Of a DNA stretch of 45,427 nt, positions 1 through 21,961 are shown one piece after another. The stretch covers positions 1 to 45,427 of the forward strand of contig CAYQYW010000007.1 in NCBI GenBank assembly GCA_964421995.1, given 5' to 3'. The notes below the pieces were generated by a model. It did no database searches and was not told where the DNA came from. It was given only the letters and a program-made list of their open reading frames with translations. Position 1 is the first letter of the stretch, and the number at the start of each line of letters is the position of its first letter. The DNA is from an uncultured Candidatus Saccharibacteria bacterium (lineage in GTDB: Bacteria; Patescibacteriota; Minisyncoccia; Phycocordibacterales; CAYQYW01). Made by a program: the position numbers and the translations under genes.

Positions 1-156
1 GTAATATCCTTGGCCGTAGTAATATCCTTGTCCGTAGTAGTAGCCTTGCGTGTAGTAATATCCTTGGTAATATCCTTGGCCGTAGTAATATCCTTGGCCG
101 TAGTAGTAACCTTGCGTGTAGTAATATCCTTCTGAATAGTACGTACCTTGAGCGTA
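1..156 (-). repeat. 18-bp coding tandem repeat (GYYYGQ-type units), paralog B
   Basis: Units such as gtaatatccttggccgta at 1-18, 67-84 and 85-102. Variant units at 19-54 and 103-156, plus one 12-bp unit at 55-66. Confidence 0.95.
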
Positions 157-2553
157 GGTACCCACATCCACATGTCCTGTTTTTGTTGATTCAGTACCAA
201 ACACCCGAGTCAACGTGTCAGCTTCATCATCAGTTTCCCCAGAGTAAAAGAGGTATCCTTTCTTCAAGGTAGCGCCTGCTCCAGTCTTGGAAATTGCAAT
301 CGTTCCATTAATTGTAATAGAAGTGCCAGGGTTAAATGCCCATGTTGCACCCTCGTTTAACGTCAACGTTATTCCTGAAGAAATCGTAAGATTTCCCTGA
401 TCCAACCCATCAACCACCGACACCGCACAGTCAGCAGAGAGTGTAGAGTCAGAACCGTCGGTCAGACCACTACAGGGGTCTGACCAAGCCATGGTGATAT
501 CATTGGTTGCACCTACTGCATTCGTTGCGATGAATTTTGTTCGGTAGACTTGTGTATGGGTGTCATGAACTACCCATGAGACGGAGAACGTGGTACCCGT
601 ACTGTCTGACGCAGTCTCTACAAGATCAAGGGTGAGCGTGATGGTATCAAGGTCGGTGATTGCCTGTACAGAAGTAATGGTTTCTGCAGACGTTACCTTT
701 ACTACCATAATCTGAGTATCTCCGACATATACGTGGAGGGGTTGTATATCAACGGTAATGAAATCAGGGTCTGCTCCTTTTCCTGATGATACTCGGTAGG
801 TAACGTCTTCACCTGCTGCTGCTCCGAGTGTGTAGTGTAGTGGCTGCTGATTTGCCTCTGCAATTTGTGGTGCAGTAACGGTGATAATACGAGCTACTTC
901 CTTTGCAGCATTACCATCACTGTCCGTAACGTTGTAGAGGATGAGGTAGTCTCCTGAAGTATTGTAGTCTACGGTATCTCCACTCAAGACTACCTCTTTA
1001 CTGAGGTTACCGTCTTCTGCGTCACGTGCTTCTACTCCTGGATCAGTGTAGATACCTCCTGGTTCTATCTCTACTACTTGGCTACCGATGAGGGTTAGAA
1101 CAGGTGTTGCGTCCTCTGGAGTAAGTGGTACTCCTACTCTACTCTCTACTATGGTGATGATTCGTACTATTTGTTCTGCTTTATTACCGTGACTATCAAT
1201 AACATCGTAGAGAATGAGGTAGTCTCCTGCTTTGTTGTAGTTGATGAAGTCACTGTTAATGATAACGTCAGCACTAATGTTTCCATCTTCTATGTCGAGT
1301 GCATCTACTCCGAGCTCTTCATACTTTCCTCCAGGCTGAAGGATAATCTTTTCTTTCCCTATCAAGACAAGTAGTGGTACGTTGTCTGTCTTTTCTTTCT
1401 TTAGTTCCTTGGTGGCGTCTTTACCACTGTATGCTCCTTGTGCGTAGATTGATTTCTCCTTGGTAGTGGTTGTTTGTGTAGCGATGGTGGTGGTGCTAAT
1501 GGTAAGATCTCCTTTAATTTTTTCAATGAGGTCTTCGATGAGCGGTGGTGTTTCTGTTGCTAATTTCTGAACTACTTCTTCTTGTGTTGGTTGATCTTCA
1601 ACGACAACAGGTGTGGGTGGTGTTTCAACAGCAACTTTTACTTCTTCTTGCACCGGTTCTTCTGGAATTACTTCAACAGGAATAACTTTTTCTTGCACCA
1701 CCACCTTTTCTCTTTCAGGAATAAACTGAGTGACGAACTGAACTACTTTCTTGCTCTGTACTTGAAGTTCTTTGAGTGGTACTTGGACTATGGTAACGAT
1801 AGGTTCAAGGATTGGTTTTAATGGTTGGTATAGTCGATCAAAGAGTGAGGGACCTTTTGGTGGCGTGATGGTACCAAGCTCTACTGGTCTGTTGTTGTAG
1901 AGAAAGATAACATTAGTGTCAGTGAAGAGTACTGATACGTGTTGCCACTCTCCTTTCTTGAGATAGGTTCCTGCAGTAACAATATGGTCTTCTGGTGTAA
2001 TGGCATAGATCTTTCCGTTCTCTTTAATACCAATACCATATCCGTTGGGTAGACCGTAGATGAAGATCTCTTGATCGACTACCACTTGTGGGTTAATCCA
2101 TATAGTAAATGCTTCTACGGTTCTGTCTTGTAGAGACCTAAGTGGTTCATCAATTTCTACAAAGACTCCGTCTTGTAGGATGGCAACGTTCTCATAGTTT
2201 CCTTCTACCCATGCAACTCCTCCTTTTTGATTTGAGAATTCTGCGTTCAGGCTTGCTCTTGTTAAGGGGCCAACGTATCCATATCCTCCTCCCTGGAGTG
2301 AGATGGCTCCGGTACGCTGTTGGTATCGTTGTACTGCTTTTCTTGTAGAGACACCGTACACTCCGGTGATTCTCCCTTCTGGATAGAGTGAGAGATCAGA
2401 TGCTAACCATTCTTGCAAGAGAATGACTTCGTCATTCTCTGATGCGAAGGAGAGGTTTTGGGTGAGAATAGATGAAGCAAATACATGAGACGGTAATAAC
2501 AGAAATCCAAACAAGAAGATAAATACATGTATTTTTGTAAATTGATGTATCAT
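1..2553 (-). CDS. Secreted PG-binding/LamG/Ig-like (DUF5011-type) surface protein with Tyr-rich GYYYGQ tail, paralog B; 3' end runs off the window
   Basis: Absent from the ORF track because there is no stop in the window. ATG at 2553 gives MIHQFTKIHVFIFLFGFLLLPSHVFA-SSILTQNLSF (signal peptide), in frame with the 2406-bp block shared with 4821..7424. The frame is open to base 1, ending ...QGYYYGQGYY. Confidence 0.88.
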   Translation of the reverse strand, partial: MIHQFTKIHVFIFLFGFLLLPSHVFASSILTQNLSFASENDEVILLQEWLASDLSLYPEGRITGVYGVSTRKAVQRYQQRTGAISLQGGGYGYVGPLTRASLNAEFSNQKGGVAWVEGNYENVAILQDGVFVEIDEPLRSLQDRTVEAFTIWINPQVVVDQEIFIYGLPNGYGIGIKENGKIYAITPEDHIVTAGTYLKKGEWQHVSVLFTDTNVIFLYNNRPVELGTITPPKGPSLFDRLYQPLKPILEPIVTIVQVPLKELQVQSKKVVQFVTQFIPEREKVVVQEKVIPVEVIPEEPVQEEVKVAVETPPTPVVVEDQPTQEEVVQKLATETPPLIEDLIEKIKGDLTISTTTIATQTTTTKEKSIYAQGAYSGKDATKELKKEKTDNVPLLVLIGKEKIILQPGGKYEELGVDALDIEDGNISADVIINSDFINYNKAGDYLILYDVIDSHGNKAEQIVRIITIVESRVGVPLTPEDATPVLTLIGSQVVEIEPGGIYTDPGVEARDAEDGNLSKEVVLSGDTVDYNTSGDYLILYNVTDSDGNAAKEVARIITVTAPQIAEANQQPLHYTLGAAAGEDVTYRVSSGKGADPDFITVDIQPLHVYVGDTQIMVVKVTSAETITSVQAITDLDTITLTLDLVETASDSTGTTFSVSWVVHDTHTQVYRTKFIATNAVGATNDITMAWSDPCSGLTDGSDSTLSADCAVSVVDGLDQGNLTISSGITLTLNEGATWAFNPGTSITINGTIAISKTGAGATLKKGYLFYSGETDDEADTLTRVFGTESTKTGHVDVGTYAQGTYYSEGYYYTQGYYYGQGYYYGQGYYQGYYYTQGYYYGQGYYYGQGYY
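67..2472. repeat. 2406-bp direct repeat, copy 1 (copy 2 at 4911..7316, offset 4844)
   Basis: Identical wherever I compared. Three shadow ORFs in the track recur with identical translation at +4844. Boundaries read directly: mismatch at 66/4910 and at 2473/7317. Confidence 0.95.
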
Positions 2554-2587
2554 AATACCTTTACATAATACTAACACATGTGTGTAT

Positions 2588-3553
2588 CTACCAATCACTA
2601 CTTTTCGCACAGTGTTGTACATACTCTTCCTTCATACCACGACATACAAGAGGGGCCTTGCGTGCATGATTTTCTTTAGTTTGAAAAGCCCACGATGCGG
2701 CATATTTACAATATAATATTCCTTTCTTTGTAGACATCTTCTCACACCGACTAATTGTTAAAGCAACATCGTACTCGCTAGAGTTAGGGGTGAATTTACC
2801 TATACCCTTAAAACATAATTCTCTAAATACAGTATCCTCAACATCACCGCAAAGCTTTCCCATATATACATAGTCTCCGTTATATACCTGGTTCCACCAC
2901 TGTCCTAGCTCATAATAGCAAGAAGTACGAAATTTATTTGGAACAGTAGTACATGGCTCATATGGATTATCCTCATCAAGAATACGAGCCTCAGTGCTAA
3001 TATTCGTTCCCGTAACAACTAGTGGCACATTATACTCCATAAACACGCCTGAGGTACATCCCGCAAGAGGATCTGGTTGATTGGTTAATTCACACGCGCT
3101 AAGTGCACCAAGCAGATCGGGACGCATATATTCTGCTATACCATGTCCAATTCCATGCTGACACGCAGAATCACCATTACATGTCTCATCAAGAGAAGCT
3201 AGTAACAGAAGACCAACATCAGCTATACCTGCTGTGAAAAATCCATGAAAACAACCAAAAGAAAATGTTCCGTCACATACCGCAACACCCTGAACTCCTC
3301 CTTTTGCATATAGTAGTTCACCAAAAATATGTGACGCGGTATGCTGTGTTCCCGGACGATTGTAGTAAAAATCTTTGAAAAGCGAATATGCGTTTTCTAA
3401 TCCTTTTGTGTCCAAAATACCATTCCATTTTTTGTATTCTCCTGGCACATCAATCACCGCTACTAAAGAATCAGATTCTGTAGAAGTATCTATGTAGATA
3501 AAGAAAGAGACAATGGCAATAAGAAAAACCCCTAAAAATACTCTAGCGTACAT
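2588..3553 (-). CDS. Membrane-anchored Cys/His-rich putative metalloprotein (five-His family), paralog 1
   Basis: N-terminal TM segment; motifs QHTASHIFG, GCFHG, CQHGIGHG, CTSGVFME, then repeated Cys pairs. Function unassigned. Confidence 0.85.
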   Translation of the reverse strand: MYARVFLGVFLIAIVSFFIYIDTSTESDSLVAVIDVPGEYKKWNGILDTKGLENAYSLFKDFYYNRPGTQHTASHIFGELLYAKGGVQGVAVCDGTFSFGCFHGFFTAGIADVGLLLLASLDETCNGDSACQHGIGHGIAEYMRPDLLGALSACELTNQPDPLAGCTSGVFMEYNVPLVVTGTNISTEARILDEDNPYEPCTTVPNKFRTSCYYELGQWWNQVYNGDYVYMGKLCGDVEDTVFRELCFKGIGKFTPNSSEYDVALTISRCEKMSTKKGILYCKYAASWAFQTKENHARKAPLVCRGMKEEYVQHCAKSSDW

Positions 3554-4793
3554 TTGGTGCTCTGCTTAAACAAGATTGCTGGTGCTGACTCGGAATCTTA
3601 CTACAAAGAGACTTGTGTAATTTCTCATTATAAATATAGAATCCAATATTCCATGAAAGCTGTTCGTAACAAAGATCAGACAGTTCCTCCTCTGCAATTT
3701 CACAAAAAGAAAAAGAAGGTGAAGGATCATTTTCACCACCCCAAAACAATGATGAAAGAGCTCCAAACGTACAGTATACCTTTCCATCCTTGTCACCAGA
3801 AAGAGAACACCACTCGTGTATCTTTGAAAGTTCTTCTTTATTTAAATTATTGATTTGGCGTATGTCTCTGTCCCTAGCAAGCGCAACAAATTCTTTACCA
3901 AACCCGCTATAGCATGCAGAACGATTTCTTTCTTCGGTTATTGGTATTTGATTACAAATTTTAAATGCTTTCTCGTAGTATGGAGGAAGTGGCTTACCTA
4001 AACTCATGCCCACATATTTAAAAAGGTGTGGTGTAAGGTAGGTGTAGCAAATCTGTTGTACTTTTGTATCCATATATGGTGCGTTACATGGAGAAAGAGG
4101 ATCTCCTTCTATAAAATAATTAGAAACTTGCTTCTCCCACTGAACACGATCGTGTACCCCTGCAATTAGTTCCATGACACCACCACCAACACACTCTGCA
4201 TATTCTCTATTGTTATATTCTTCCGTTGCCATTTTTTTACACATACCAACTGTTTTTTCAAAGTTATAGTTATTGTATGCAAGAACACCATGTCCTAACC
4301 CATGGAAACACATTGTGTACGCACCGGTGCCACCTGGTGCGTTTCTACACACTTCGGAAATTTCATCAAGCGCTTCTTCGCCTTGTTCATTAAAAAGACC
4401 GATGACAATTGAATGTGCACAAGCATTACGAAACTCTGGCGTACACGTGTGCACTGCATCAATTCCCTTCTGTATATAAAGCGTATCTCCAATAGTGTGT
4501 GCGAGAAGATGAAGGTCTAGTCCTTCACGAAGTTCCGCATGTCTCAAAAGTCTAAACGCATATTCACCTCCTTTTTTTTCTGCAATACTTTCAAAATAAT
4601 TTGCATATTCTTTTCCTCTCCACTCTCCTATTTTTTTAACTTCACTAAGTTCTCCAAGTTCTTCGTATCGTGTAAGATCAATCTCTTTACTTTCTCCTGT
4701 ATTGTTTACAAAAAAAATAAGAGACAAAGCAGTAATACCAACCAAAAAAAGTATAGTACGCTTACTAGTAAGTTTTGTGGAAAATATATTCAT
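3543..4793 (-). CDS. Membrane-anchored Cys/His-rich putative metalloprotein (five-His family), paralog 2
   Basis: N-terminal TM segment; motifs LHLLAHTIG, ACAHS, CFHGLGHG, CVGGGVME. The stop overlaps the next gene by 11 nt. Confidence 0.85.
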   Translation of the reverse strand: MNIFSTKLTSKRTILFLVGITALSLIFFVNNTGESKEIDLTRYEELGELSEVKKIGEWRGKEYANYFESIAEKKGGEYAFRLLRHAELREGLDLHLLAHTIGDTLYIQKGIDAVHTCTPEFRNACAHSIVIGLFNEQGEEALDEISEVCRNAPGGTGAYTMCFHGLGHGVLAYNNYNFEKTVGMCKKMATEEYNNREYAECVGGGVMELIAGVHDRVQWEKQVSNYFIEGDPLSPCNAPYMDTKVQQICYTYLTPHLFKYVGMSLGKPLPPYYEKAFKICNQIPITEERNRSACYSGFGKEFVALARDRDIRQINNLNKEELSKIHEWCSLSGDKDGKVYCTFGALSSLFWGGENDPSPSFSFCEIAEEELSDLCYEQLSWNIGFYIYNEKLHKSLCSKIPSQHQQSCLSRAPNVR

Positions 4794-4820
4794 AGTGCTA
4801 ATTTTACACTATTTTATACT

Positions 4821-7424
4821 TTAATCACAAATTGGATCACAAGTCTCTTGGTACAGCCCTTCATAGTAGCCTTCGTAATATCCTTGGCCGTAGTAGTAGC
4901 CTTGTCCGTAGTAATATCCTTGGCCGTAGTAATATCCTTGGCCGTAGTAGTAACCTTGCGTGTAGTAATATCCTTCTGAATAGTACGTACCTTGAGCGTA
5001 GGTACCCACATCCACATGTCCTGTTTTTGTTGATTCAGTACCAAACACCCGAGTCAACGTGTCAGCTTCATCATCAGTTTCCCCAGAGTAAAAGAGGTAT
5101 CCTTTCTTCAAGGTAGCGCCTGCTCCAGTCTTGGAAATTGCAATCGTTCCATTAATTGTAATAGAAGTGCCAGGGTTAAATGCCCATGTTGCACCCTCGT
5201 TTAACGTCAACGTTATTCCTGAAGAAATCGTAAGATTTCCCTGATCCAACCCATCAACCACCGACACCGCACAGTCAGCAGAGAGTGTAGAGTCAGAACC
5301 GTCGGTCAGACCACTACAGGGGTCTGACCAAGCCATGGTGATATCATTGGTTGCACCTACTGCATTCGTTGCGATGAATTTTGTTCGGTAGACTTGTGTA
5401 TGGGTGTCATGAACTACCCATGAGACGGAGAACGTGGTACCCGTACTGTCTGACGCAGTCTCTACAAGATCAAGGGTGAGCGTGATGGTATCAAGGTCGG
5501 TGATTGCCTGTACAGAAGTAATGGTTTCTGCAGACGTTACCTTTACTACCATAATCTGAGTATCTCCGACATATACGTGGAGGGGTTGTATATCAACGGT
5601 AATGAAATCAGGGTCTGCTCCTTTTCCTGATGATACTCGGTAGGTAACGTCTTCACCTGCTGCTGCTCCGAGTGTGTAGTGTAGTGGCTGCTGATTTGCC
5701 TCTGCAATTTGTGGTGCAGTAACGGTGATAATACGAGCTACTTCCTTTGCAGCATTACCATCACTGTCCGTAACGTTGTAGAGGATGAGGTAGTCTCCTG
5801 AAGTATTGTAGTCTACGGTATCTCCACTCAAGACTACCTCTTTACTGAGGTTACCGTCTTCTGCGTCACGTGCTTCTACTCCTGGATCAGTGTAGATACC
5901 TCCTGGTTCTATCTCTACTACTTGGCTACCGATGAGGGTTAGAACAGGTGTTGCGTCCTCTGGAGTAAGTGGTACTCCTACTCTACTCTCTACTATGGTG
6001 ATGATTCGTACTATTTGTTCTGCTTTATTACCGTGACTATCAATAACATCGTAGAGAATGAGGTAGTCTCCTGCTTTGTTGTAGTTGATGAAGTCACTGT
6101 TAATGATAACGTCAGCACTAATGTTTCCATCTTCTATGTCGAGTGCATCTACTCCGAGCTCTTCATACTTTCCTCCAGGCTGAAGGATAATCTTTTCTTT
6201 CCCTATCAAGACAAGTAGTGGTACGTTGTCTGTCTTTTCTTTCTTTAGTTCCTTGGTGGCGTCTTTACCACTGTATGCTCCTTGTGCGTAGATTGATTTC
6301 TCCTTGGTAGTGGTTGTTTGTGTAGCGATGGTGGTGGTGCTAATGGTAAGATCTCCTTTAATTTTTTCAATGAGGTCTTCGATGAGCGGTGGTGTTTCTG
6401 TTGCTAATTTCTGAACTACTTCTTCTTGTGTTGGTTGATCTTCAACGACAACAGGTGTGGGTGGTGTTTCAACAGCAACTTTTACTTCTTCTTGCACCGG
6501 TTCTTCTGGAATTACTTCAACAGGAATAACTTTTTCTTGCACCACCACCTTTTCTCTTTCAGGAATAAACTGAGTGACGAACTGAACTACTTTCTTGCTC
6601 TGTACTTGAAGTTCTTTGAGTGGTACTTGGACTATGGTAACGATAGGTTCAAGGATTGGTTTTAATGGTTGGTATAGTCGATCAAAGAGTGAGGGACCTT
6701 TTGGTGGCGTGATGGTACCAAGCTCTACTGGTCTGTTGTTGTAGAGAAAGATAACATTAGTGTCAGTGAAGAGTACTGATACGTGTTGCCACTCTCCTTT
6801 CTTGAGATAGGTTCCTGCAGTAACAATATGGTCTTCTGGTGTAATGGCATAGATCTTTCCGTTCTCTTTAATACCAATACCATATCCGTTGGGTAGACCG
6901 TAGATGAAGATCTCTTGATCGACTACCACTTGTGGGTTAATCCATATAGTAAATGCTTCTACGGTTCTGTCTTGTAGAGACCTAAGTGGTTCATCAATTT
7001 CTACAAAGACTCCGTCTTGTAGGATGGCAACGTTCTCATAGTTTCCTTCTACCCATGCAACTCCTCCTTTTTGATTTGAGAATTCTGCGTTCAGGCTTGC
7101 TCTTGTTAAGGGGCCAACGTATCCATATCCTCCTCCCTGGAGTGAGATGGCTCCGGTACGCTGTTGGTATCGTTGTACTGCTTTTCTTGTAGAGACACCG
7201 TACACTCCGGTGATTCTCCCTTCTGGATAGAGTGAGAGATCAGATGCTAACCATTCTTGCAAGAGAATGACTTCGTCATTCTCTGATGCGAAGGAGAGGT
7301 TTTGGGTGAGAATAGAGTACGTATAGGGAATACGTTCTGCAAAAACGTCTGGAATTAGAACTGAGAAAATAAGAAGTAGTGAAAAAAGAAAAAAAGTAAT
7401 TTTTTGTTGTATTCTTTTATACAT
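4821..7424 (-). CDS. Secreted PG-binding/LamG/Ig-like (DUF5011-type) surface protein with Tyr-rich GYYYGQ tail, paralog A
   Basis: Signal peptide MYKRIQQKITFFLFSLLLIFSVLIPDVFA (ORF extends to ATG 7451). PG-binding-like segment EVILLQEWL..YPEGRITGVYGVSTRKAVQRYQ..GYVGPLTRASLN. LamG-like segment FTIWINP..GEWQHVSV. P/E/V-rich linker. Two DUF5011-like repeats (PxLxLIG...DxEDGN...GDYLILYxVxDSxGN). Tail GYYYGQ repeats, then ETCDPICD. Confidence 0.88.
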   Translation of the reverse strand: MYKRIQQKITFFLFSLLLIFSVLIPDVFAERIPYTYSILTQNLSFASENDEVILLQEWLASDLSLYPEGRITGVYGVSTRKAVQRYQQRTGAISLQGGGYGYVGPLTRASLNAEFSNQKGGVAWVEGNYENVAILQDGVFVEIDEPLRSLQDRTVEAFTIWINPQVVVDQEIFIYGLPNGYGIGIKENGKIYAITPEDHIVTAGTYLKKGEWQHVSVLFTDTNVIFLYNNRPVELGTITPPKGPSLFDRLYQPLKPILEPIVTIVQVPLKELQVQSKKVVQFVTQFIPEREKVVVQEKVIPVEVIPEEPVQEEVKVAVETPPTPVVVEDQPTQEEVVQKLATETPPLIEDLIEKIKGDLTISTTTIATQTTTTKEKSIYAQGAYSGKDATKELKKEKTDNVPLLVLIGKEKIILQPGGKYEELGVDALDIEDGNISADVIINSDFINYNKAGDYLILYDVIDSHGNKAEQIVRIITIVESRVGVPLTPEDATPVLTLIGSQVVEIEPGGIYTDPGVEARDAEDGNLSKEVVLSGDTVDYNTSGDYLILYNVTDSDGNAAKEVARIITVTAPQIAEANQQPLHYTLGAAAGEDVTYRVSSGKGADPDFITVDIQPLHVYVGDTQIMVVKVTSAETITSVQAITDLDTITLTLDLVETASDSTGTTFSVSWVVHDTHTQVYRTKFIATNAVGATNDITMAWSDPCSGLTDGSDSTLSADCAVSVVDGLDQGNLTISSGITLTLNEGATWAFNPGTSITINGTIAISKTGAGATLKKGYLFYSGETDDEADTLTRVFGTESTKTGHVDVGTYAQGTYYSEGYYYTQGYYYGQGYYYGQGYYYGQGYYYGQGYYEGYYEGLYQETCDPICD
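4851..5000 (-). repeat. 18-bp coding tandem repeat (GYYYGQ-type units), paralog A
   Basis: Seven 18-bp units at 4875-5000 plus two 12-bp units (EGYY, EGLY) at 4851-4874. Confidence 0.95.
4911..7316. repeat. 2406-bp direct repeat, copy 2
   Basis: Matches 67..2472. Confidence 0.95.
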
Positions 7425-7496
7425 GAAAATTATATTAAAACTATACGCCATCTATACATAGGTGCAAGTAATTCCTGTGGTTAATTTCTTTTATAG

Positions 7497-10400: not shown

Positions 10401-13400
10401 TGCTGCTTGAGCCAGTCCTCCTGCTGCGGTGACCGTAAGTGTGTCTCCAGTGAGCGTAATACCTGAACCAACCAAAAGGTTTGTTTCTGCAGAGATGTCG
10501 ATTGAGGTGCCGAGTGTGGTAGTAAGGCTTGAGCCTGATAGTGTTAGACCAGTACCAGTGAGATCATTAATATAGTCACTTCCAAGTAGGAGATTCGTTA
10601 TTGAAAGATTTGGGAGCGTTGAGGTGGCGCTGGTTGAACTTGCAACAAAAATATTTCCAAGAACACTCTTGTCAACACGAAGTGTTGAAGAAGCAAAAAT
10701 GTTTGCGCTGAAATATGAAGAACCGGAAACTTGAAGAATTTCATTTTTAGTTGTTGTTGCTGTTGATCCAATAATAACAATATTGGTTGAATCGTCAGGG
10801 TGAAGGGCAAGATCATTTGTTGTGGTTGCCCAAAAACCGCCTCCGCTTCCGCCTCCAGAAGTTAAATCGGTACTCCACGTTGGTACACCGCCTGCAAGTT
10901 TCAAGACCAAACCATTAGATCCTACAGCAAGGCGTGTTAGTGAGTTTGTTGAATCTGCATAGAGAATGTCACCAGTGCTATATGCTGTCGCTCCTGTTCC
11001 TCCAAAGATCTCTGTTATAGCAGAGCCATTCCAAGTACCTGCCACTATTGTACCGAGAGACGATTGTGTTGAGGAAAGCTGTGGGAAGGTGCTCGTTGCC
11101 GTAGTGCTCGTTGCGGTGAAGTATTCTGCTACTGTTTGACCTACTACAGAGAGTTTTGCATATGGTGAGGTTGTTCCGATTCCTACGTTTCCAGTAGAAG
11201 CAATTGTCAGTCTTGTATTAGCATTTGTTCGGAATATCAGTGAACCTCCACCAAATGCCTCGATACCAGCATTGAATCCATCTAGCATACCAAATTCACC
11301 AGTTCTATTCTGCGTACTGTCCGTGATTGTGATTACAGGTGCAGATGTGCTTTGTATAGCCAAAATACTTACTGGACTCGTCGTGCCAATACCCAATCGA
11401 TTGTTTGTATCATTCCAGAAGAGATTACTAGTGTCTTGTTTGTACGTCGTTCCGTCTGAGAAAAAAAGTCCCCCATTTTGTGCAGTGGTGGTGCCCGTAC
11501 CACCACTGGTTAACGCTAATGTTCCCACAGTGTCAGACAATGCTATTCCAAGTGTTGAAGTTGCAACGTAGCTTGGGAGTCCTGTAGAGAGTGATAATTG
11601 TAGTAGTGAGCCTCTTGTTGAGGTTGCAAGTCGTGCTAATGAGTTCGCTGCGTTTGCATAGAGTAGATCTCCAATAACATACGATGTTTGACCGGTGCCT
11701 CCAAAGGTCTCTGCTATGATACTTCCATTCCAGGTACCCGTAGTAACAGTACCAATAGTTGAAAGACTTGGGGTGCTTATCAGTGTTCCAATCGTTGAGG
11801 TTGCGTTAATGCGTGCGTCCGCTCGAGCGTTGGTAAAGTACAGATTAGTACCCCCCTCAGTAAGTTGATCCGTCGTCGTACTAAACCAACTCGACAAGGT
11901 AAGAACGTTATTCGTTCGTGCAAGTGCGTTGTCGATAAAGTTTTGGCTAATGGTAGAAGTTGAGATAAGGTTACCTGCTCCATCTCCAAAGAGAAAGTCA
12001 CTTGGTGTGGTTGATCCTGTTCCTCCTTTGGTTACTCCGAGGGTTCCCCCAATCGTAGTAAGAGTGGTCGTTGCTACCCAGATAGGCACGCCACTCTCTA
12101 GTGCAAGGACCTGACCGTTCACTCCAGCTGTTGTGGTTGCAAGTGCTCCTGTTCCATTACCCAGGAGGATGGTGTTTGCTTGTATAGCTGATTGACCGGT
12201 TCCTCCGTTACTTACTCCAAGAATACCGGTAATGTCAGTTGCAAGGTTCACAAGTGCGGTCGCTACTACTCCTCCTGTTGCTTTGAGAAAGCCGGTGAGG
12301 GTTCCTATGTTAAACCCTCCGGTTACCCGTAGTCCGCTGAGAGTTGAGGTTGCAGTGGTGTTTAATCGTAGTGCACTCAACCCTCCCGAGAAGGTACTGG
12401 TTGCGGTGGTGGTTGCGGTGAAAGAAGGAGCGACAAGTGGATTGTATGTAGTCAATGTTCCTCCAATAAGTGCATTACCAATAACTTCAAAAGAGTTTCC
12501 GGTAGTGGTGGTGGCACTTCCTCCAACGATAACTACACGATTTGCAAGTGGTGAAATAGCAAGTGAATCGGTGGTGGTTGCAAAGAGTCCTTCAGCTCCT
12601 GAAGTGGACCATGAAAGTCCTCCTGATCCGTTCGTAATGAGTACCTGATTTGCAATACCATCAGCAGAAGGATAGAGATATTCAACACCATTGAAGGTAG
12701 TTGATCCTACCACAGTAAGAGATCCATCAATGAATACACTTGATGATGCATAGAGAGTGCTCGGGATATGAATAGCAACGGTGGTTGTTGGTGCAAGGAG
12801 TCCATTGCTGTTGATCTCCCACGATTGACCAAACACAGCACCTCCATCAGTACCACAGACAAGAAAGCCATTACTATCAGTATCAATAGTGTCACAATTA
12901 GTAAGGTCTGAGAGCGCAAGGTTTGTCGCGGAGATACCGGAAGAGAAAGTTGTGGTTGCAATGCTACTAACAGAGAGTTTTGTTAATGACGCACTGGTGT
13001 CCGTGATAACGGAACTAGAGAGAGTAATACCTCCTAGATTATTTATTTGATTCGTCCGTGCAATGGTTGTGTAGTTGTTAATGATTTGTTGCTTGTTTAC
13101 ATTGGTGATTGCTTGTACGTGCTCTAGTGTTTGTTGTGCTTGTTTCTTAAGTGCATCATCAAATTGTTTTTTTGAGATACCGGTGACTACAATGTTGGTG
13201 ATTGGTTTTACCTGAACAATCCTCTCTTCTATTATTGTTTTGACAACCTTTTCAGCTTCAATAAAACCGTCGGGGATCGGTTGTGCTTCAGTTTCAATTC
13301 GTCCACCCGCATCTCGTTTAGGAAATAATGTTGAGAAAAATTTTCTAACAGTACTGATTCCCTTCCCAGTATTTTCTGGAAGATTTCTGATTGCAGAATA

Positions 13401-13832
13401 TACCGACGCAGGAGTCGTAACTTCCTTAATAGAATCTACTGAATCACTAACAACAAAATCATGAGCATCAAGATTAAAAATTCCAAGAACAAATAAAAAT
13501 GCAACCATCACCGCAATAGTACCCTCAAGAAATTCCTTCAAAAAATCATGTTGAAATTTTTTTATTATTTCACTCTTTTCATTTTTGTACTCACGCCTTC
13601 TTTTATCTGAAAGGTTGACTTTTCTCTCTTCTCGTTTTCTTTCTTCTTCCGCAATAAAGCAACCGAGTGACTTTTTATTAAGGTGCCAAACATTTCCAAC
13701 GAGCTTCGCTTTAATTTTTCCAACACGACACAGATAGGCAATGTGACTACGAGTGTACCCCGTCAAAGAAACTGCTTTGGGAGAAGAAATATATCCTCCA
13801 CTATTTTTTATTGAATCATCAAATGTAGGCAT
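7497..13832 (-). CDS. Giant (2111 aa) membrane-anchored surface/fibre protein with N-terminal excisionase/MerR-like HTH, TM helix, Gly/Thr/Ser-rich repeats and C-terminal DUF5011-like Ig domains
   Basis: HTH YISSPKAVSLTGYTRSHIAYLCRVGKIKAKLVGNVWHL; TM IAVMVAFLFVLGIF; repeated GGTG, GNVGIGT and ATST motifs; two C-terminal DTxxPVxTxxG...YxxxGxTxxD domains. Confidence 0.88.
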   Translation of the reverse strand: MPTFDDSIKNSGGYISSPKAVSLTGYTRSHIAYLCRVGKIKAKLVGNVWHLNKKSLGCFIAEEERKREERKVNLSDKRRREYKNEKSEIIKKFQHDFLKEFLEGTIAVMVAFLFVLGIFNLDAHDFVVSDSVDSIKEVTTPASVYSAIRNLPENTGKGISTVRKFFSTLFPKRDAGGRIETEAQPIPDGFIEAEKVVKTIIEERIVQVKPITNIVVTGISKKQFDDALKKQAQQTLEHVQAITNVNKQQIINNYTTIARTNQINNLGGITLSSSVITDTSASLTKLSVSSIATTTFSSGISATNLALSDLTNCDTIDTDSNGFLVCGTDGGAVFGQSWEINSNGLLAPTTTVAIHIPSTLYASSSVFIDGSLTVVGSTTFNGVEYLYPSADGIANQVLITNGSGGLSWSTSGAEGLFATTTDSLAISPLANRVVIVGGSATTTTGNSFEVIGNALIGGTLTTYNPLVAPSFTATTTATSTFSGGLSALRLNTTATSTLSGLRVTGGFNIGTLTGFLKATGGVVATALVNLATDITGILGVSNGGTGQSAIQANTILLGNGTGALATTTAGVNGQVLALESGVPIWVATTTLTTIGGTLGVTKGGTGSTTPSDFLFGDGAGNLISTSTISQNFIDNALARTNNVLTLSSWFSTTTDQLTEGGTNLYFTNARADARINATSTIGTLISTPSLSTIGTVTTGTWNGSIIAETFGGTGQTSYVIGDLLYANAANSLARLATSTRGSLLQLSLSTGLPSYVATSTLGIALSDTVGTLALTSGGTGTTTAQNGGLFFSDGTTYKQDTSNLFWNDTNNRLGIGTTSPVSILAIQSTSAPVITITDSTQNRTGEFGMLDGFNAGIEAFGGGSLIFRTNANTRLTIASTGNVGIGTTSPYAKLSVVGQTVAEYFTATSTTATSTFPQLSSTQSSLGTIVAGTWNGSAITEIFGGTGATAYSTGDILYADSTNSLTRLAVGSNGLVLKLAGGVPTWSTDLTSGGGSGGGFWATTTNDLALHPDDSTNIVIIGSTATTTKNEILQVSGSSYFSANIFASSTLRVDKSVLGNIFVASSTSATSTLPNLSITNLLLGSDYINDLTGTGLTLSGSSLTTTLGTSIDISAETNLLVGSGITLTGDTLTVTAAGGLAQAAGGLTTTGVLEDLNTLGASASDGEFIVATGAGAFAYESTATARTSLGLGSLATLSSINNSNWSGTDLSVTNGGTGASTLNDLITLGTHTTGNYAATVADSGAGTITVGGSGSETAAITVGLNLANANSWTGLQSFTNASSTLFSVFDTSYFGGTATSTFDSAGNLTLGGTLTVGGDSINEFAGTGLTVSGNALTVDLGTSIDISAETNLVGGTNITLSGDTLNVDDAFLVNNANDVTTGQLTALNFVASSATATSTFAGGLTVDTSDFVVDPDAGRVGIGTSVPGKLLTVSKNGNGVPGDEAIVRIETTDEFVGTGDVIGGLEFFSHDLSDPSDITGFMRSEALNAGTRFALTFGSKDSGSDATEMMRIDSSGNVGVGTTVLSSKFTIDQNSASGVALTVTGGGTGASLATFTRDIGASGTININAGGGDAQIRFTSNNDFAIGVDDTTFRISDNTSVGTNDRFVIDSSGNVGIGTSTPAFRFAVASLGTGAMSAMIGTSSIDTLLVGGGLGKLTAGTIDPVYSIGGTQYATYVAGMIGQKEETTGVVTINTQVTDSAGNIGYLYEINFDEQEVGSDLWLFAKSSTIRKHIDRLVVLLTSEGGADVSYVINEAENKVIFLADKPTRVSYRFTSPRFDSDTWTNFNNDGVTGFVVPEFDDTIYFENEDITFSFEGATENVAEFFATFGGTIINDVLHLGELVLDVLQVNSIVALVIQTDDLTIGDIEKPTGFTIYDKVTRDPMCIELVNGELIPIPGACGTQTVQQTTDTIPPVLTVIGNNPAEVSLGAEYSDLGVTVTDNVNENLGHTIQVDGVDVVEVVLDTGTSTIYTIVYSAIDEAGNEGSTTRTVIVGEEVSTSTPSTPSTPSTPDTLDTPDTLAPVITLLGESNISLEQEADYIEEGATAVDEIDGDLSNQIVITGTIDTTTTGEYTVRYNVADASENQAIEVIRTVSVIEQANNATSTPENM
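7797..7832 (-). repeat. 9-bp coding tandem repeat x4 (STP linker)
   Basis: tggtgtact x4, encoding STPSTPSTPSTP between the two C-terminal Ig-like domains. Confidence 0.9.
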
Positions 13833-13839
13833 GTGAAAT

Positions 13840-13862
13840 ATACCTATATAATATCAGGTTAT
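13840..13862 (-). promoter_or_regulatory. Putative promoter/operator, ACCT-N10-AGGT dyad containing TGn-TATTAT
   Basis: atacctatataatatcaggttat, 20/23 identical to 18310..18332, immediately upstream of the giant gene start. Confidence 0.5.
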
Positions 13863-14065
13863 ACTACACGCAACGCATAGTATTTAAAAAATACTGGGGA
13901 TTACCTAACAACACTTTTTTAAAAAAGTATGACAAAAAATAAATTATTTGAAAGAAGTATAAAATAATTTTCTTATTTATTAAGAAATATGCTAGAAAAT
14001 TAAATAGTAGCAACTCTCATGTCAAAATCATCTACTTTATTTTCTAACAAATATTATTTAAATAC

Positions 14066-14097
14066 AAAACACATCTCGTTTAACCGAGATGTGTTTT
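14066..14097. terminator. Rho-independent terminator (bidirectional-type hairpin) after the cupredoxin operon
   Basis: Perfect 13-bp stem aaaacacatctcg / cgagatgtgtttt with a 6-nt loop, 26 bp downstream of the 14124 stop. Confidence 0.85.
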
Positions 14098-14123
14098 AAA
14101 ATATGCTTTAATGACCGAGATAT

Positions 14124-14627
14124 TTATTTCTTCTTAATAAATGATGATATTCCAAATCCGGCAGAAAGTCCTATAATTCCAAATACAATTAATAAAGTAT
14201 TATTGTTTGGCTCTGCCTCATTCTTGTTCACACTAGAAGACACAACCATTAATGGAAATGATGCCGATACAAGTTTCTCAGTGCCGTTCTGGTAGCGAAC
14301 AGAGAGCTCATAGTCACCCACTTCTCCGAATGTATAGGTCATTCGAGCTCCACCAAAGTCAGAGTTGTATACACCACTTGCGTATACTGTCTTTCCTTCT
14401 TTAATTAGTCGAACCCACACATCAGTGTATTCAATTTCATACTGTTTATTGGTTGAAATACCAAAATCAAAAAGTACTGATTTCCCTGTTTGAAATTCTT
14501 CAGTATTGTATCCTATATCAACACGATATCCATCAATATCCGACTCAAATGATAATCCTGTTCCGTGAGCGAGTACTACGGGTGCACTTAGTACTAGCAA
14601 TAGTGCAATAAAACTTCTTGCAAACAT
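14124..14627 (-). CDS. Secreted protein with predicted mature N-terminal His, Ig-like domain and C-terminal TM anchor (CopC/YtkA-like architecture)
   Basis: Signal peptide ends VVLA-HG; beta-rich core (YTFGEVGDYELSVRY); C-terminal hydrophobic helix followed by KKK. Confidence 0.75.
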   Translation of the reverse strand: MFARSFIALLLVLSAPVVLAHGTGLSFESDIDGYRVDIGYNTEEFQTGKSVLFDFGISTNKQYEIEYTDVWVRLIKEGKTVYASGVYNSDFGGARMTYTFGEVGDYELSVRYQNGTEKLVSASFPLMVVSSSVNKNEAEPNNNTLLIVFGIIGLSAGFGISSFIKKK

Positions 14628-14632
14628 ACTTA

Positions 14633-15022
14633 TTATTCAATTACATTAATAATACCATTCCAATATGGAGCAAGATGTCCATGAAATTTCCAACTTCCAA
14701 CCTTATTGAAGGTAAAGCTCCATGTATCACCAGGTTTAATTGGTTTTCGTGGATCAAACTCAGCATACGTACGGTGGGACGGATGAAGGTTTGACGCTGG
14801 CCAAAATGGCTTTCCGTTTGTTGTACTGAAGGTAACGCTATCTCCTTTACGTACTGTAAGTGTATCAGGATGAAAACCATCACTCTCCAACACAACCTGA
14901 TAATTTACTCCCGTACTCAATACAGAACCCTCTATACCCTTTTCTTCTACTACATTACTGTTAAACAACGCGATTCCCGCAAAGGCAATTAAAATTAACC
15001 CTACACTATATTTCTTGTTCAT
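14633..15022 (-). CDS. Stand-alone membrane-anchored cupredoxin-like protein (Cys-less, His-rich)
   Basis: GFHPDTLTVRKGDSVTF...WPASNLHPSH...PGDTWSFTFNKVGSWKFHGHL...GIINV is the cupredoxin strand pattern. Confidence 0.8.
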   Translation of the reverse strand: MNKKYSVGLILIAFAGIALFNSNVVEEKGIEGSVLSTGVNYQVVLESDGFHPDTLTVRKGDSVTFSTTNGKPFWPASNLHPSHRTYAEFDPRKPIKPGDTWSFTFNKVGSWKFHGHLAPYWNGIINVIE

Positions 15023-15043
15023 GAGAAAATTATACCTCGTGTT

Positions 15044-16471
15044 TTAGTATGTACAAAATGTCTGATATTCTTCTAAGACAGAAGAGCAAATCTTCTTACT
15101 CTTCTCAAGTGAGTACCAACCAGGTAGCGTACTTAGTACCATTTTAAAACAAGTGTTCCTTTCAAGAGATGTCATGCTATTTGTCTCGCAAAAAGATAGT
15201 GCGGCCCTATATTCTTCTCCCGGCACACCATGTTCCATAAGACCTTGAGAAAATCCTTCTATACACGTTAGTTGATACTCGTCTGGTATGGTATGACAAT
15301 CACGGACAACACTGGTAAAGTCTGTTGTTTGAAGATGTGTGAGTGCATGTTGACCTCCCAAATATATGAATGCTCTTCTCTTTTGATCTTCATCTGGTAT
15401 GGCAACGATGTACGGAGCTGCTTTTACAAAATCATTGTCATTCATCCACATTAATACCGAATTCATGTTTCCGTAACAAGGTTCTTTGTACACATCAGGC
15501 TGCATCGCACAGATCTCTAATGGGTTTCTTTTCTTAACTGATAGTCCGTATTCTCCGGTGATATAAAAATTAGCAACACCGTTAAAAATTCCTGACGCAC
15601 ATCTATATAATTGTTCATCACTACTTGATACCTCTGCACACACTTTTAATGCTTCTTCAATCATTTCATTTTCACTACTAAACACTCCATGTTCAGCAAC
15701 CACTGTTTCCATAGCACCATGACCAATACCGTGATAGCACTGCAACGCCGCATCAGGTGCTTCAGTAGATAAATACTCTCCTATGTATGCACATACTTCC
15801 TGTGCTTCTTCAAGGTCTCCTGTTGCACCAAGATGTGCTTCCATAAATCCATGAAAGAATCCACTAGCACAGTACGTTGTTTTTTCTGTAAGAATAGATG
15901 TATGATCAAGAACATATGCACCATATCCTGCAAAACCAAGATTGTGTGCAATAAAGTGACACGAATTTGCAAAAAGTGGTTCCTCTCTGTACAGCTGTGC
16001 AAGAACATCAAAAGCGCTGTTTAAACCACTCTTCTCAAGTGAATCAAGGATTTCTTCTTGCCAACATTCTAATCCTTCTACACAAGACGTGACAGCCTCT
16101 CCTTGGTCAACAACATATAGCACACCAGTAAAATATGGAGCCAGATGATCATGGAACTTCCATGATCCAACTTTATCAAAGGTAAAACTCCATGAACTAT
16201 CGGGATTAACAGGCTCCATAGAATCAAATGTAGAGTAAGTTGTATGTGATGGATGGAGATTTGAAGCGGGCCAAAAAAACTTACCACGCTCTGATGTAAA
16301 CGTTACGGTATCTCCCACTGTAATAGTCAATTCCTTTGGAGAAAAACCTTTATCACTTAGGACAATGTTATTGCCCTGCCCTATTTCACTTCCAGCGTTG
16401 TTGTATACAAAAACTGCTATACCAAGAGCAACAATAAGTAACACTACTCTCTTTATTTTCTTATAGTCCAT
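15044..16471 (-). CDS. Cupredoxin-like domain fused to the Cys/His-rich five-His domain, paralog 3
   Basis: Likely start MDYKKIKRVV at 16471 (11-nt overlap with the upstream stop; track ORF starts at 16528). TM segment; WPASNLHPSH..WKFHDHL; CHFIAHNLG, CASGFFHG, CYHGIGHG, CASGIFN. Confidence 0.85.
   Translation of the reverse strand: MDYKKIKRVVLLIVALGIAVFVYNNAGSEIGQGNNIVLSDKGFSPKELTITVGDTVTFTSERGKFFWPASNLHPSHTTYSTFDSMEPVNPDSSWSFTFDKVGSWKFHDHLAPYFTGVLYVVDQGEAVTSCVEGLECWQEEILDSLEKSGLNSAFDVLAQLYREEPLFANSCHFIAHNLGFAGYGAYVLDHTSILTEKTTYCASGFFHGFMEAHLGATGDLEEAQEVCAYIGEYLSTEAPDAALQCYHGIGHGAMETVVAEHGVFSSENEMIEEALKVCAEVSSSDEQLYRCASGIFNGVANFYITGEYGLSVKKRNPLEICAMQPDVYKEPCYGNMNSVLMWMNDNDFVKAAPYIVAIPDEDQKRRAFIYLGGQHALTHLQTTDFTSVVRDCHTIPDEYQLTCIEGFSQGLMEHGVPGEEYRAALSFCETNSMTSLERNTCFKMVLSTLPGWYSLEKSKKICSSVLEEYQTFCTY
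16146..16195. repeat. 50-bp intragenic direct repeat containing a 21-bp palindrome, copy 1
   Basis: 49/50 identical to 17620..17669; GATCATGGAA-C-TTCCATGATC at 16147-16167. Confidence 0.9.
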
Positions 16472-18209
16472 AGTCTTCTTCACAAAGATATTGATATTCA
16501 GACTCAAGCAATGGACAAATTTGTTCAATAACTTTATCCATGTACACTCCTCGGAACGTTCTCATAATGTTCCAGTAACAAATACTTTTTTCGTCCGAAG
16601 TAAGAACTGAAGAGCTACAGAAAGTGATTGCTTTTACATATTCCTTTGTTGGTTCGCCGTGGGCAACAAAACCACCCGTGATTCCTTTTAGACACGCCAC
16701 TTGAACTCTTTCAGGAAGAGAACGACACTCATACAGTAATGGTATATGGTCATCTTCAGAAATTAATTCTTGCATTACTGCAGCAACAAGAGGTCCAATA
16801 ATAACATCTGCTATTTCATCATCTTCAATATCTTTCACATACAAGTTATAGAATTCTAGAAGACCATTTTTGGTGTATATATTTAATTTCATAGAGAGCT
16901 CGTAGTAGCATGCAAGTGTTTCCTCATAATTTGCTTGTGTTCTACATAATTTCATTGGATCATTCGGGTCAGGCTCTAGACCATAATTATCTGTATATAT
17001 CCAATCAGAAATAACATTAAATGCACCTTGTAAACACTCCATTCGTTCATCATCTTTTTCTAATTTTCGACACACATCAATTCCTGTTTGAACAAATGCT
17101 TGTGCATCTCCCCACATACCAGTATCAGATGGCTCTTGAACAAAACCATGGCCAATTGCATGGAAACAATTTAACCGAATGCGTGGAAGATCTTCTGATC
17201 GATTCTTAATTAACTCATTACAAATACCAACTACGTCTTCGAAGTCAGGAGTATCTCTGAGATAATGTTCCAAGAAACCATGATAATAACCGTATCCACA
17301 ATACGATGAGGAATCTGGAAATTGCACCTTACTAAAATCTTTATGAGTTAAATAATCTGCGTACGATGCATCACCTATCTTGTGTGAATACCAATGACAT
17401 CCGTCACTAGCAAACTGCGGATCTGATTCATACAAATGAGTAAAAATTTCAAATGCTTTTGTTACACCACCTTCTTCAACAGCTTGCGACAATGTAAATT
17501 CCCAACACTCTTTTTTATTTACTTCTTCCCCTCGTTTAATTTTTTCTATACAATTCGTACCATCAAAAATCTTACCCTCATCTACCACAATTATTTCTCC
17601 CCGAAGAAATGGTCGTAAGTGATCATGGAACTTCCATGATCCAGCTTTATCAAAGGTAAAACTCCATGAGTTTCCAGGTTCAATTGGTGCACGTGAATCA
17701 AATTCTGGATAGACCTCATGATCGGGATGAACACTTGATGCTGGCCAAAATAATTTATCACTTTTAGTTTTAAACGTAACCGTGTCCTTTGTTTGAATCA
17801 CCAATGTATCTGGTTCATATCTGTCTTCATACATAACAATAGTATTTTCCTCTCCGTTTTTTGTTGGTGTCACCGCAAAAAATATGGAGGTAAATTTTGC
17901 TATTGTAGAGCTATATACTTTGGCTAAATCACCCTTAATATCTTGAAAAATTTCCTTTCTATCATTTTTTTCCAAAACCAAAGCAGAAAGTGAATCTGAT
18001 TTTTGAGTAATAATGCTGATCGTATCAGCAGGATATGAACTACCCATGAAAAAGAACACAGCAAACACAAAGGTTGTAGCTATTAAAAAAGCACCGGCTC
18101 TATTCACAAAGTCTGGACCAGCTGTTAAAAGAAGTCTTGGCTCAAACACTCGTGGAATTCGATACTGTAACGTTTCCTTTTTTGAGGTGTTATCTTTTGT
18201 ATTCTTCAT
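16461..18209 (-). CDS. Cupredoxin-like domain fused to the Cys/His-rich five-His domain, paralog 4
   Basis: TM segment FLIATTFVFAVFFFMG; WPASSVHPDH..WKFHDHL; CHWYSHKIG, CGYGYYHG, CFHAIGHG, CLQGAFN. Confidence 0.85.
   Translation of the reverse strand: MKNTKDNTSKKETLQYRIPRVFEPRLLLTAGPDFVNRAGAFLIATTFVFAVFFFMGSSYPADTISIITQKSDSLSALVLEKNDRKEIFQDIKGDLAKVYSSTIAKFTSIFFAVTPTKNGEENTIVMYEDRYEPDTLVIQTKDTVTFKTKSDKLFWPASSVHPDHEVYPEFDSRAPIEPGNSWSFTFDKAGSWKFHDHLRPFLRGEIIVVDEGKIFDGTNCIEKIKRGEEVNKKECWEFTLSQAVEEGGVTKAFEIFTHLYESDPQFASDGCHWYSHKIGDASYADYLTHKDFSKVQFPDSSSYCGYGYYHGFLEHYLRDTPDFEDVVGICNELIKNRSEDLPRIRLNCFHAIGHGFVQEPSDTGMWGDAQAFVQTGIDVCRKLEKDDERMECLQGAFNVISDWIYTDNYGLEPDPNDPMKLCRTQANYEETLACYYELSMKLNIYTKNGLLEFYNLYVKDIEDDEIADVIIGPLVAAVMQELISEDDHIPLLYECRSLPERVQVACLKGITGGFVAHGEPTKEYVKAITFCSSSVLTSDEKSICYWNIMRTFRGVYMDKVIEQICPLLESEYQYLCEEDYGL
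17620..17669. repeat. 50-bp intragenic direct repeat containing a 21-bp palindrome, copy 2
   Basis: Palindrome at 17621-17641. Confidence 0.9.
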
Positions 18210-19172: not shown

Positions 19173-19225
19173 TAAACCTATTATACGAGATTTCAATCAT
19201 ATGAAAAGCTTTTTTGTGGAAAAGC

Positions 19226-21957: not shown

Positions 21958-21961
21958 AGTA

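Follow-up and report, generated by a model that had tools for sequence, protein, structure and literature searches.

We analyzed the first 45,427 nucleotides (the window) of contig CAYQYW010000007.1 (C7) from an uncultured Candidatus Saccharibacteria bacterium (assembly GCA_964421995.1), whose genome comprises 591 kb on 10 contigs and is 98.7% complete. Positions 1-18209 of the window carry a cluster of nine genes for membrane-anchored Cys/His-rich proteins (CH proteins), cupredoxin-like domains, a secreted protein with a predicted N-terminal His (N-His protein), and surface proteins, two of which end in Tyr-repeat tails (Ytail1 and Ytail2). An open reading frame (ORF) map placed all nine genes on the minus strand, in agreement with the single strand given in the initial annotation, and they are transcribed in the order CH582, CH494, cupredoxin, N-His, 2111-residue surface protein, Ytail2, CH416, CH321, and Ytail1 (Table 1). 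The protein types recognized at the outset were also recovered. The four CH proteins are indeed paralogs with 22-25% identity, the invariant residues H71, H75, H103, H133, and H137, and paired Cys. The three cupredoxin-like domains share 46-54% identity and four invariant His, and the only His of the N-His protein directly follows the signal-peptide-like sequence ...VVLA. The two Tyr-tail proteins, described as secreted and peptidoglycan-binding, are near-identical except for their N-termini, and PG_binding_1 scored 29.1 bits with residues 58-100 of Ytail2 (cut-off 23).

The gap between Ytail2 and CH416 is exactly the 27 bp given originally. The second short gap, reported as 34 bp, holds provided that Ytail1 begins at an internal Met at position 2553. 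The cluster is larger than first noted. At the end of another contig, C3, the terminal part of a Tyr tail (...GYYEGYYEGLYQETCDPICD; ...QGYYYGQGYYEGYYEGLYQETCDPICD) is followed by a stop codon, 6 nt, and two further CH paralogs, with genes for GAPDH, rpiB, rpe, and tkt downstream of this pair. Base 1 of C7 and the end of C3 (position 86101) both lie inside a Tyr repeat and probably join, the assembly being broken by the 2.6-kb near-identical Tyr-tail genes (1-2622 versus 4821-7451). There are thus six CH paralogs, with a CH pair directly after each Tyr-tail gene.

Table 1. Genes and features of the cluster at the start of contig C7.
Feature	Position	Strand	Description
Ytail1	1-2622	-	Peptidoglycan-binding, Ig (immunoglobulin)-like, Tyr-repeat surface protein; near-identical second copy; runs off the contig end within the Tyr repeat
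CH321	2588-3553	-	N-terminal membrane anchor, then Cys/His-rich alpha-helical repeat domain; subfamily I
CH416	3543-4793	-	Membrane-anchored CH protein; subfamily II
Ytail2	4821-7451	-	Signal peptide, PG_binding_1, two Bact_surface_Ig-like domains, conserved pre-repeat module (about residues 711-820), Tyr-repeat tail
Ytail2 Tyr-repeat tail	4824-5003	-	(GYYY[GT]Q)n, final residues ...YYEGLYQETCDPICD
2111-residue surface protein	7497-13832	-	Helix-turn-helix-like N-terminal segment, membrane anchor, long Thr/Gly-rich repeats, two Ig-like domains
N-His protein, 167 residues	14124-14627	-	Signal peptide, predicted mature N-terminal His, beta-sandwich, C-terminal membrane anchor
Stand-alone cupredoxin-like protein, 129 residues	14633-15022	-	Membrane-anchored, Cys-less, motif HPxH...HxH
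CH494	15044-16528	-	Fusion of cupredoxin-like domain and CH domain; subfamily IV; likely ATG start at 16471
CH582	16461-18209	-	Fusion of cupredoxin-like domain and CH domain; subfamily IV

Linkage of CH and cupredoxin genes to Tyr-repeat proteins

Three sets of loci were used to examine the gene context: 31 CH gene neighborhoods of at most 20 kb from a sample of the phylum (set 1), 44 loci around the cupredoxin motif from GTDB species genomes (set 2), and the best 80 of 189 metagenome loci with CH494-type motifs (set 3). A locus counted as Tyr-rich when an ORF of at least 60 residues had at least nine Tyr in any 30 residues, a criterion that was fixed before sets 2 and 3. Locus L169, which passed this threshold with a non-repeat, cytoplasmic-looking protein, was left out of the pooled counts, and the near-identical loci L156 and L157 were both counted, forming a single group when loci were grouped by CH identity.

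In 78 of the 155 pooled loci, CH and cupredoxin were either parts of one fusion protein, with both orders occurring, or products of adjacent genes. Tyr-rich genes occurred at 24 of these 78 loci (21/43 among those of at least 8 kb), at 1/43 CH-only loci, and at 0/34 cupredoxin-only loci (Fisher p = 2e-7 for the pooled loci, which are related to each other and not independent). These counts show that the linkage of CH and cupredoxin to Tyr-repeat secreted proteins is non-random, and they support the view that this association needs cupredoxin as well as CH. The co-occurrence beyond this genome on which the initial annotation depended is thus borne out, as Tyr-repeat proteins recur at CH loci elsewhere. 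The tie between five-His and Tyr-repeat proteins that it had proposed is seen where cupredoxin is present and does not hold for the CH family as a whole. In set 1, only two of the 31 loci were Tyr-rich, and both also contained cupredoxin. A link unique to this genome was considered as well, and this idea was overturned by the broader Tyr-rich criteria and the CH494-subtype loci.

The 25 positive loci fall into 24, 16, and 7 groups at 90%, 60%, and 50% best CH identity, respectively. The closest CH gene lay 14 bp to 4.5 kb away from the Tyr gene, and in five cases this distance was below 150 bp. As a like-for-like control, we used a period-6 Tyr-Tyr x4 DNA pattern (period-6 pattern), which was present at 10 of the 80 metagenome CH loci. 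The same pattern had no true case in 400 other genomes of the phylum, where it matched two (TAC)n runs and one stop-containing sequence. Among five cluster-bearing whole genomes, G401 and G403 had one period-6 site each, in both cases at the CH cluster, and G402 and G404 had none; the fifth, G405, is discussed below.

Three loci (L081, L123, and L136) repeat the layout of this cluster, with, in order, a Ytail homolog, a CH array with the same subfamily order, cupredoxin-CH, rpiB, rpe, and tkt, and in L081 and L123 the run also includes the N-His gene and GAPDH. Homologs of the 2111-residue surface protein adjoin CH clusters in L087, L130, and L131. Clustering of the neighbors at the 31 CH loci of set 1 revealed no strongly conserved partner besides cupredoxin; lesser neighbors were MsrA (3 loci), MsrB (3), and a response regulator (5). 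The MsrA and MsrB genes adjoin CH genes in L049, L054, and L076, and in L054 they are accompanied by genes that by eye resemble CcdA and thioredoxin. As a separate observation, a polytopic membrane protein of about 325 residues adjoins CH genes in 9 of 90 loci (L124:192-1166 and eight others) and is fused to CH in protein P0067. It has no Pfam match, and a weak Atlas lead (13% of one cluster) points to HTTM, which is vitamin-K-carboxylase-like.

Together, the CH array, the four-His cupredoxin, the N-His protein, and the Tyr-repeat secreted proteins make up an extracytoplasmic module whose genes are conserved among some of the Patescibacteria. We regard it as improbable that they are mere neighbors, surface-protein genes being clustered in small genomes and Tyr-rich low complexity being a habit of the lineage. 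Such an explanation would be in line with the unrelated giant surface protein in the cluster, with the Tyr-repeat genes found elsewhere (on a pilin gene of contig C1 and in G405), with the relatedness of the positive loci, which form only 7 groups at 50% CH identity, and with the origin of the control sets from sources other than the metagenome set. It is at odds with the concentration of Tyr-rich genes at CH and cupredoxin loci as compared to CH-only and cupredoxin-only loci, with the lack of a true period-6 match in the 400 phylum genomes, and with the position of the sole period-6 sites of G401 and G403 at their CH clusters. In addition, the linkage persists while the repeat types change between lineages.

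We propose the following mechanism for the module. The N-His protein and the cupredoxin domain would take up copper outside the cell and deliver it, or electrons, to the CH His sites. Next, the CH proteins would oxidatively cross-link or hydroxylate the Tyr-repeat stretches of the adjoining surface proteins, and the modified proteins would thereby be fixed into the envelope or onto a host. We infer the metal, the chemistry, and the relation to the substrate, and consider this mechanism as a whole, in which extracellular copper would be used by CH proteins to oxidize or cross-link Tyr stalks, a real possibility that falls somewhat short of an even chance. A more detailed version is tentative and, with all its parts, rather doubtful: CH proteins would be unrecognized extracytoplasmic His-ligated copper enzymes, of which four paralog types would act in a membrane-anchored complex that is served by the Cys-less cupredoxin and a His-brace-like chaperone, and this complex would oxidatively cross-link the Tyr stalks that pilins and surface proteins carry, which would yield a covalently cured coat or a host-attachment glue.

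Copper-type proteins of the module

The assignment of the cupredoxin-like domains rests on Pfam Cupredoxin_1, which scored 28.0 bits with CH582 (cut-off 27) and, below the cut-off, 23.2 and 20.6 bits with the other two, and on an alignment to amicyanin with E 3.9e-6, in which the first His ligand is aligned. The position of the amicyanin Cys ligand is occupied by Asp (85%) or Gly. When 144 domains from the complete set of fetched loci were compared, conservation of H80, H83, H114, and H116 was 96-98%, and there was no conserved Cys or Met, so the His-Cys-His-Met ligand set of type-1 blue copper cupredoxins is absent from these domains. The domain therefore has a fold homologous to that of amicyanin and plastocyanin but differs from them by the replacement of the Cys ligand by Asp or Gly, by its four His, and by its membrane anchorage or fusion to CH. 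A publication that deals with Patescibacteria and cupredoxins, as far as its accessible parts go, concerns plastocyanin-type electron carriers.

In 20 of 20 homologs of the N-His protein, the signal sequence closes with Ala or Thr and the His comes next; E28, D37, D54, and W71 are also kept. Homologs adjoin a cupredoxin gene in 16 of the 155 loci. In the AlphaFold2 model, eight strands form a sandwich, and a membrane helix lies at the C-terminus (pLDDT, the predicted local distance difference test, 87.6). The best match of this model in a VIA comparison was the CopC-family copper protein CrdA of Helicobacter pylori (9ll2_A, Z 11.3, root-mean-square deviation 2.8, 103 aligned residues), followed by matches to the copper/iron proteins HftA, Tp34, and FtrA-P19 (Z 9.0-9.6), and Foldseek matched CopC (5icu, E 1.1e-3). 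As ordinary macroglobulin-type Ig-like domains score as high (Z 9-11), the fold alone is no proof of a relation to CrdA or CopC. Pfam gave neither a DUF1775 nor a CopC match and only a weak PKD hit of 16.9 bits (cut-off 23.5).

In YcnI of Bacillus subtilis, Cu(II) is held by the N-terminal His together with a Glu and a Trp close by, according to the available part of the description (PMC8424229). The N-His protein resembles YcnI, as far as that text covers it, in its signal peptide, its predicted mature N-terminal His, its beta-sandwich, and its C-terminal transmembrane helix (PMC8424229). It further shares a conserved acidic residue (E28) and W71 with the group of YcnI, CopC, and CrdA, with CrdA as the best fold match. 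It differs from this group by the lack of a Pfam match to DUF1775 or CopC and by the lack of a second His; CrdA itself has no His, as stated in the part of its description that is accessible (PMC9182242). The amicyanin homology, the four-His site, the YcnI-type layout with its invariant His, and the CrdA fold match thus lend indirect support to a predicted copper theme.

The same proteins could serve metal handling only. CH proteins, cupredoxin, and N-His would then acquire, buffer, or store copper or another metal outside the cytoplasm of a cell without cytoplasmic copper machinery, and the Tyr proteins would be co-regulated or would bind metal through phenolate-type ligands without being substrates. 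We consider this unlikely. The similar layout and fold of N-His and the copper-trafficking proteins YcnI, CopC, and CrdA would suit such a role, as would the His-only cupredoxin site, the lack of an HMA domain in the genome itself, and the lack of a Tyr-rich gene at 42/43 CH-only and 54/78 CH and cupredoxin loci. The MsrA and MsrB genes beside CH genes in 3 of 31 loci could hint at an oxidative-stress setting. However, metal handling leaves unexplained why Tyr genes are enriched solely at loci with CH and cupredoxin, in five cases less than 150 bp from CH. No known copper user that would be supplied was found in the genome in a search for two families, and four conserved CH subfamilies exceed the needs of a simple buffer.

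The CH family and the Tyr-repeat proteins

No Pfam family matched the four CH proteins of the window or any of 68 family members at E<0.005. NCBIfam likewise gave no CH match, and the CH profile found nothing among PDB sequences. Searched against 1.84 billion representatives, this profile matched 6297 proteins (representative clusters) with a threshold of E<=1e-3, of which 4699 also passed E<=1e-10. Their common forms are proteins of about 400 residues with an anchor and a CH domain and proteins of about 500 residues with cupredoxin and CH; there are also a few giants with up to 7 CH stretches, such as the 3580-residue representative P0001, which has seven of them in a single chain. In an even sample of the phylum, the family occurred at E<=1e-10 in 25 of 400 other genomes, and none of the genomes listed in this sample from the same order or class contained it.

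Among 68 diverse members of the family, conservation of the five His amounts to 97-100%. In 39 proteins from seven loci, H71, H75, and H103 were His in 39/39 and H133 and H137 in 38/39. The conserved Cys form pairs that are 5-11 residues apart (C125/C131, C154/C166, C201/C212, C270/C282, and C304/C315). C270 and C282 were both lost in one protein, as is expected for a disulfide pair; C304 and C315 are both missing in two C-terminally truncated proteins. A heme or zinc role of the His set was rejected, as neither CxxCH nor HExxH is visible in the sequences. A tree of the 39 CH domains resolved four subfamilies with a support of at least 99/98 each, and every subfamily contains this genome together with several other loci. 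As the four subfamilies are shared across loci, the paralogs are old and non-redundant.

AlphaFold2 modeled CH321 as an all-alpha protein with a pLDDT of 90.0 and a predicted template modeling (pTM) score of 0.84, and the CH domain is thus confidently predicted to fold as a disulfide-stapled alpha-helical repeat. With this model, Foldseek found no PDB match at E<=1e-3, and its top rows were weak matches to designed armadillo proteins with repeat peptides (E 0.02, template modeling score 0.2). At best, a full VIA scan gave Z 6.1 over 127 residues, to HEAT/ARM-type repeats, a score too low to mean more than a common helical arrangement.

This fold raises the question of whether CH proteins bind the Tyr repeats instead of modifying them. 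They could be membrane-anchored receptors or chaperones that dock the repeats non-covalently in a His-lined groove, with one protein repeat per peptide repeat, and the copper-type proteins would be accessory or unrelated. Surface proteins and pilins would then be tethered to the cell in the manner of cohesin-dockerin or armadillo-peptide pairs. We consider this alternative, the main rival to the proposed mechanism, rather unlikely, but it has several points in its favor. The helical-repeat fold with designed armadillo-peptide complexes as top, albeit weak, Foldseek rows agrees with it, as do the 2-9 CH genes per locus and the giants with up to 7 CH domains. Most loci retain each of the four subfamilies, in keeping with a panel of binding modules or with a hetero-oligomer. 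The stalk-like placement of the Tyr repeats next to C-terminal anchors, Hint domains, or Cys-rich end domains, and the occurrence of the same tail type on a pilin-like protein, as expected for a portable tag, point in the same direction. However, near-absolute conservation of five His over very long branches is what a metal site or catalytic center would typically show, more so than a peptide groove. Furthermore, the repeats diverge by lineage (GYYYGQ, YYSQSS, YYSYGQST, GGYYGQ, YYTP) while the His set is constant, and the recurrent cupredoxin fusion would be left without an explanation. When the CH321 ectodomain was co-folded with the 71 C-terminal residues of Ytail2, the score was 0.00 (mark 0.32), which is no evidence either way.

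The Tyr-repeat proteins themselves are variable. Repeat units change with lineage and include GYYY[GA]Q, YYSQS[SA], YYSYGQST, GGYYGQ, GYYPPGYSE, YYTP, and TYP/SYP, and most of the Tyr-repeat proteins at related loci start with a signal-like hydrophobic stretch. The module that precedes the tail of Ytail2 (about residues 711-820) recurs in L131, L137, L151, and L245, where small Tyr-repeat proteins have it as their N-terminal domain, and blast clustering placed 17 such proteins from 11 loci in one group. A third tail of this genome (YYSQGYYYGQGYYYNQGYYYTQGYYYSQGYY) belongs to a type IV pilin-like protein with an N-terminal GFTLIEML motif, which is encoded on contig C1 (71615-72298, plus strand), outside the window; a paralog immediately upstream has the vestigial ending SYYSQGYF. 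Because this pilin-like protein carries a Tyr tail, the tail is a portable module that extends beyond the cluster.

In relatives, the repeats are followed by one of three kinds of endings, namely a Hint domain, a Cys-rich end domain, or a short amphipathic end, and because of these endings the repeats can be viewed as stalk-like segments beside a likely attachment point. PT-HINT followed the Tyr repeat in L161 (E 9.6e-14) and L081 (E 8.5e-9) and was recognized by eye in L136 and L197, whereas Pfam found no PT-HINT in Ytail2, and the tails of the window finish in CDPICD. The Hint/intein-like domains (C...HN) directly follow the Tyr-rich stretch in L081:2-1405, L136:959-3517, L161:6953-8011, and L197:4743-5945. 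With Hint cleavage, the Tyr stretch of these relatives would become a new C-terminus that is perhaps ligated to something. Two homologous secreted proteins of about 810 residues, L054:12234-14654 and L088:7418-9850, combine Cys-rich N-terminal repeats with several hundred residues of YYTP-type repeats. They lie between or adjoin CH genes in both genomes, and their sequence resembles extensin or mussel glue.

Several observations weigh against oxidation or cross-linking of Tyr stalks by copper-dependent CH proteins. No Tyr-rich ORF was present in 54 of the 78 CH and cupredoxin loci, although many of these 54 are on short contigs, and a GYYYGQ-type pattern (exact YYYGQGYYY DNA, up to 2 mismatches) occurred in 0/25 CH-positive genomes of the phylum sample. 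No CH gene is near the pilin-like Tyr-tail gene on C1, and the single period-6 site of G405 is not near any CH gene. With respect to the CH domain, no homology ties its sequence to copper or to any oxidase, and tyrosinase and hemocyanin were absent from both the Foldseek and the VIA lists, in which generic HEAT/ARM-like repeats were best. Five conserved His were found instead of the six of a type-3 copper site, and helix polarity in the secondary structure of the model suggests that H103 may be far from the two HxxxH pairs. The arrays and multidomain CH proteins look more like binding or structural elements than like enzymes. The N-His fold score, as mentioned, ties with that of ordinary Ig-like domains. 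Finally, the genome has no HMA domain and no heme-copper oxidase (two families searched) and thus shows no other sign of copper use.

G405 provides a counter-example to strict linkage. Its locus L246 (G405:C49, 9548-10603) encodes a YYTQGN-repeat protein with a C-terminal membrane anchor that is more than 10 kb away from any CH gene.

The proposed cross-linking can be compared with several known systems. Type-3 copper proteins have six conserved His that form two three-His copper sites. The CH proteins would resemble them, and the tyrosinase and mussel foot protein system, in a His-ligated metal on alpha-helices with HxxxH motifs and in repeated Tyr-rich secreted proteins as targets, and some of the repeats found here (TYPSYPTYP, YYTPS) are similar to such mussel-type substrates. 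However, no sequence match to this family was found, none of its members is among the Foldseek and VIA matches, and CH proteins are membrane-anchored helical-repeat solenoids with five His and disulfide staples that occur as paralog arrays. BURP-domain cyclases and fungal DUF3328/UstYa proteins catalyze copper-dependent Tyr cross-linking in repeated core peptides and have adjacent Cys and His in their motifs. The initial annotation had drawn this analogy while seeing no sequence homology to either family, and Pfam indeed gave no match. In contrast to these enzymes, the CH substrate would be a separate protein, and the CH Cys appear to be structural pairs.

In the coat of Bacillus spores, the laccase CotA acts together with Tyr-rich coat proteins and dityrosine is formed, and plant extensins are paired with peroxidases. 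The proposed module would be similar in that a Tyr-rich surface layer is cured by a copper or heme oxidase; it differs in that the cluster contains no multicopper oxidase or peroxidase, the candidate enzyme family being unrelated and uncharacterized. Armadillo and HEAT peptide binders share with the modeled CH domain an alpha-helical repeat architecture, which could bind an extended repeat peptide, but the matches are weak (E 0.02, Z <=6.1), and CH proteins are extracytoplasmic and disulfide-stapled with an invariant His set.

Novelty of the module and other features of the window

No prior description of the module was found in the literature searched, the coverage of which excludes most subscription journals, and this literature also contained nothing on tyrosine-rich proteins in the Candidate Phyla Radiation or on dityrosine in Patescibacteria. 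Patescibacteria account for much of the diversity of bacteria and spend their lives attached to other cells, and little is known of how their envelope is built and how they cling to their hosts. An unannotated family of 6297 representative clusters is now tied to concrete partners, namely the cupredoxin with its four His, the protein with an N-terminal His, and the surface proteins with Tyr repeats. Should oxidative Tyr cross-linking prove true, the CH proteins would be a new metalloenzyme family, and bacteria would have a new means of curing a surface layer. In these ultra-small episymbionts, the chemistry would then be a bacterial equivalent of that of extensin, resilin, or mussel glue. If the CH proteins dock the repeats, they would represent a new surface-anchoring code. 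Either reading offers defined proteins and peptides for expression and assays.

The remainder of the window contains ordinary chromosomal genes, including gatB, obg, secA, murB, and polysaccharide genes, and tRNA and Rfam scans of the window gave no match. A Phage_holin_4_2 gene (102.8 bits; 21625-21993, minus strand) is located between obg and secA, and no other phage gene was noticed nearby. The 2111-residue surface protein (13650-13832) and a 200-residue ORF (18594-19196, minus strand) have in common an N-terminal HTH_17-like segment (20.6 bits, below the cut-off) that is followed by a membrane anchor, and such a segment is an odd pairing for surface proteins.

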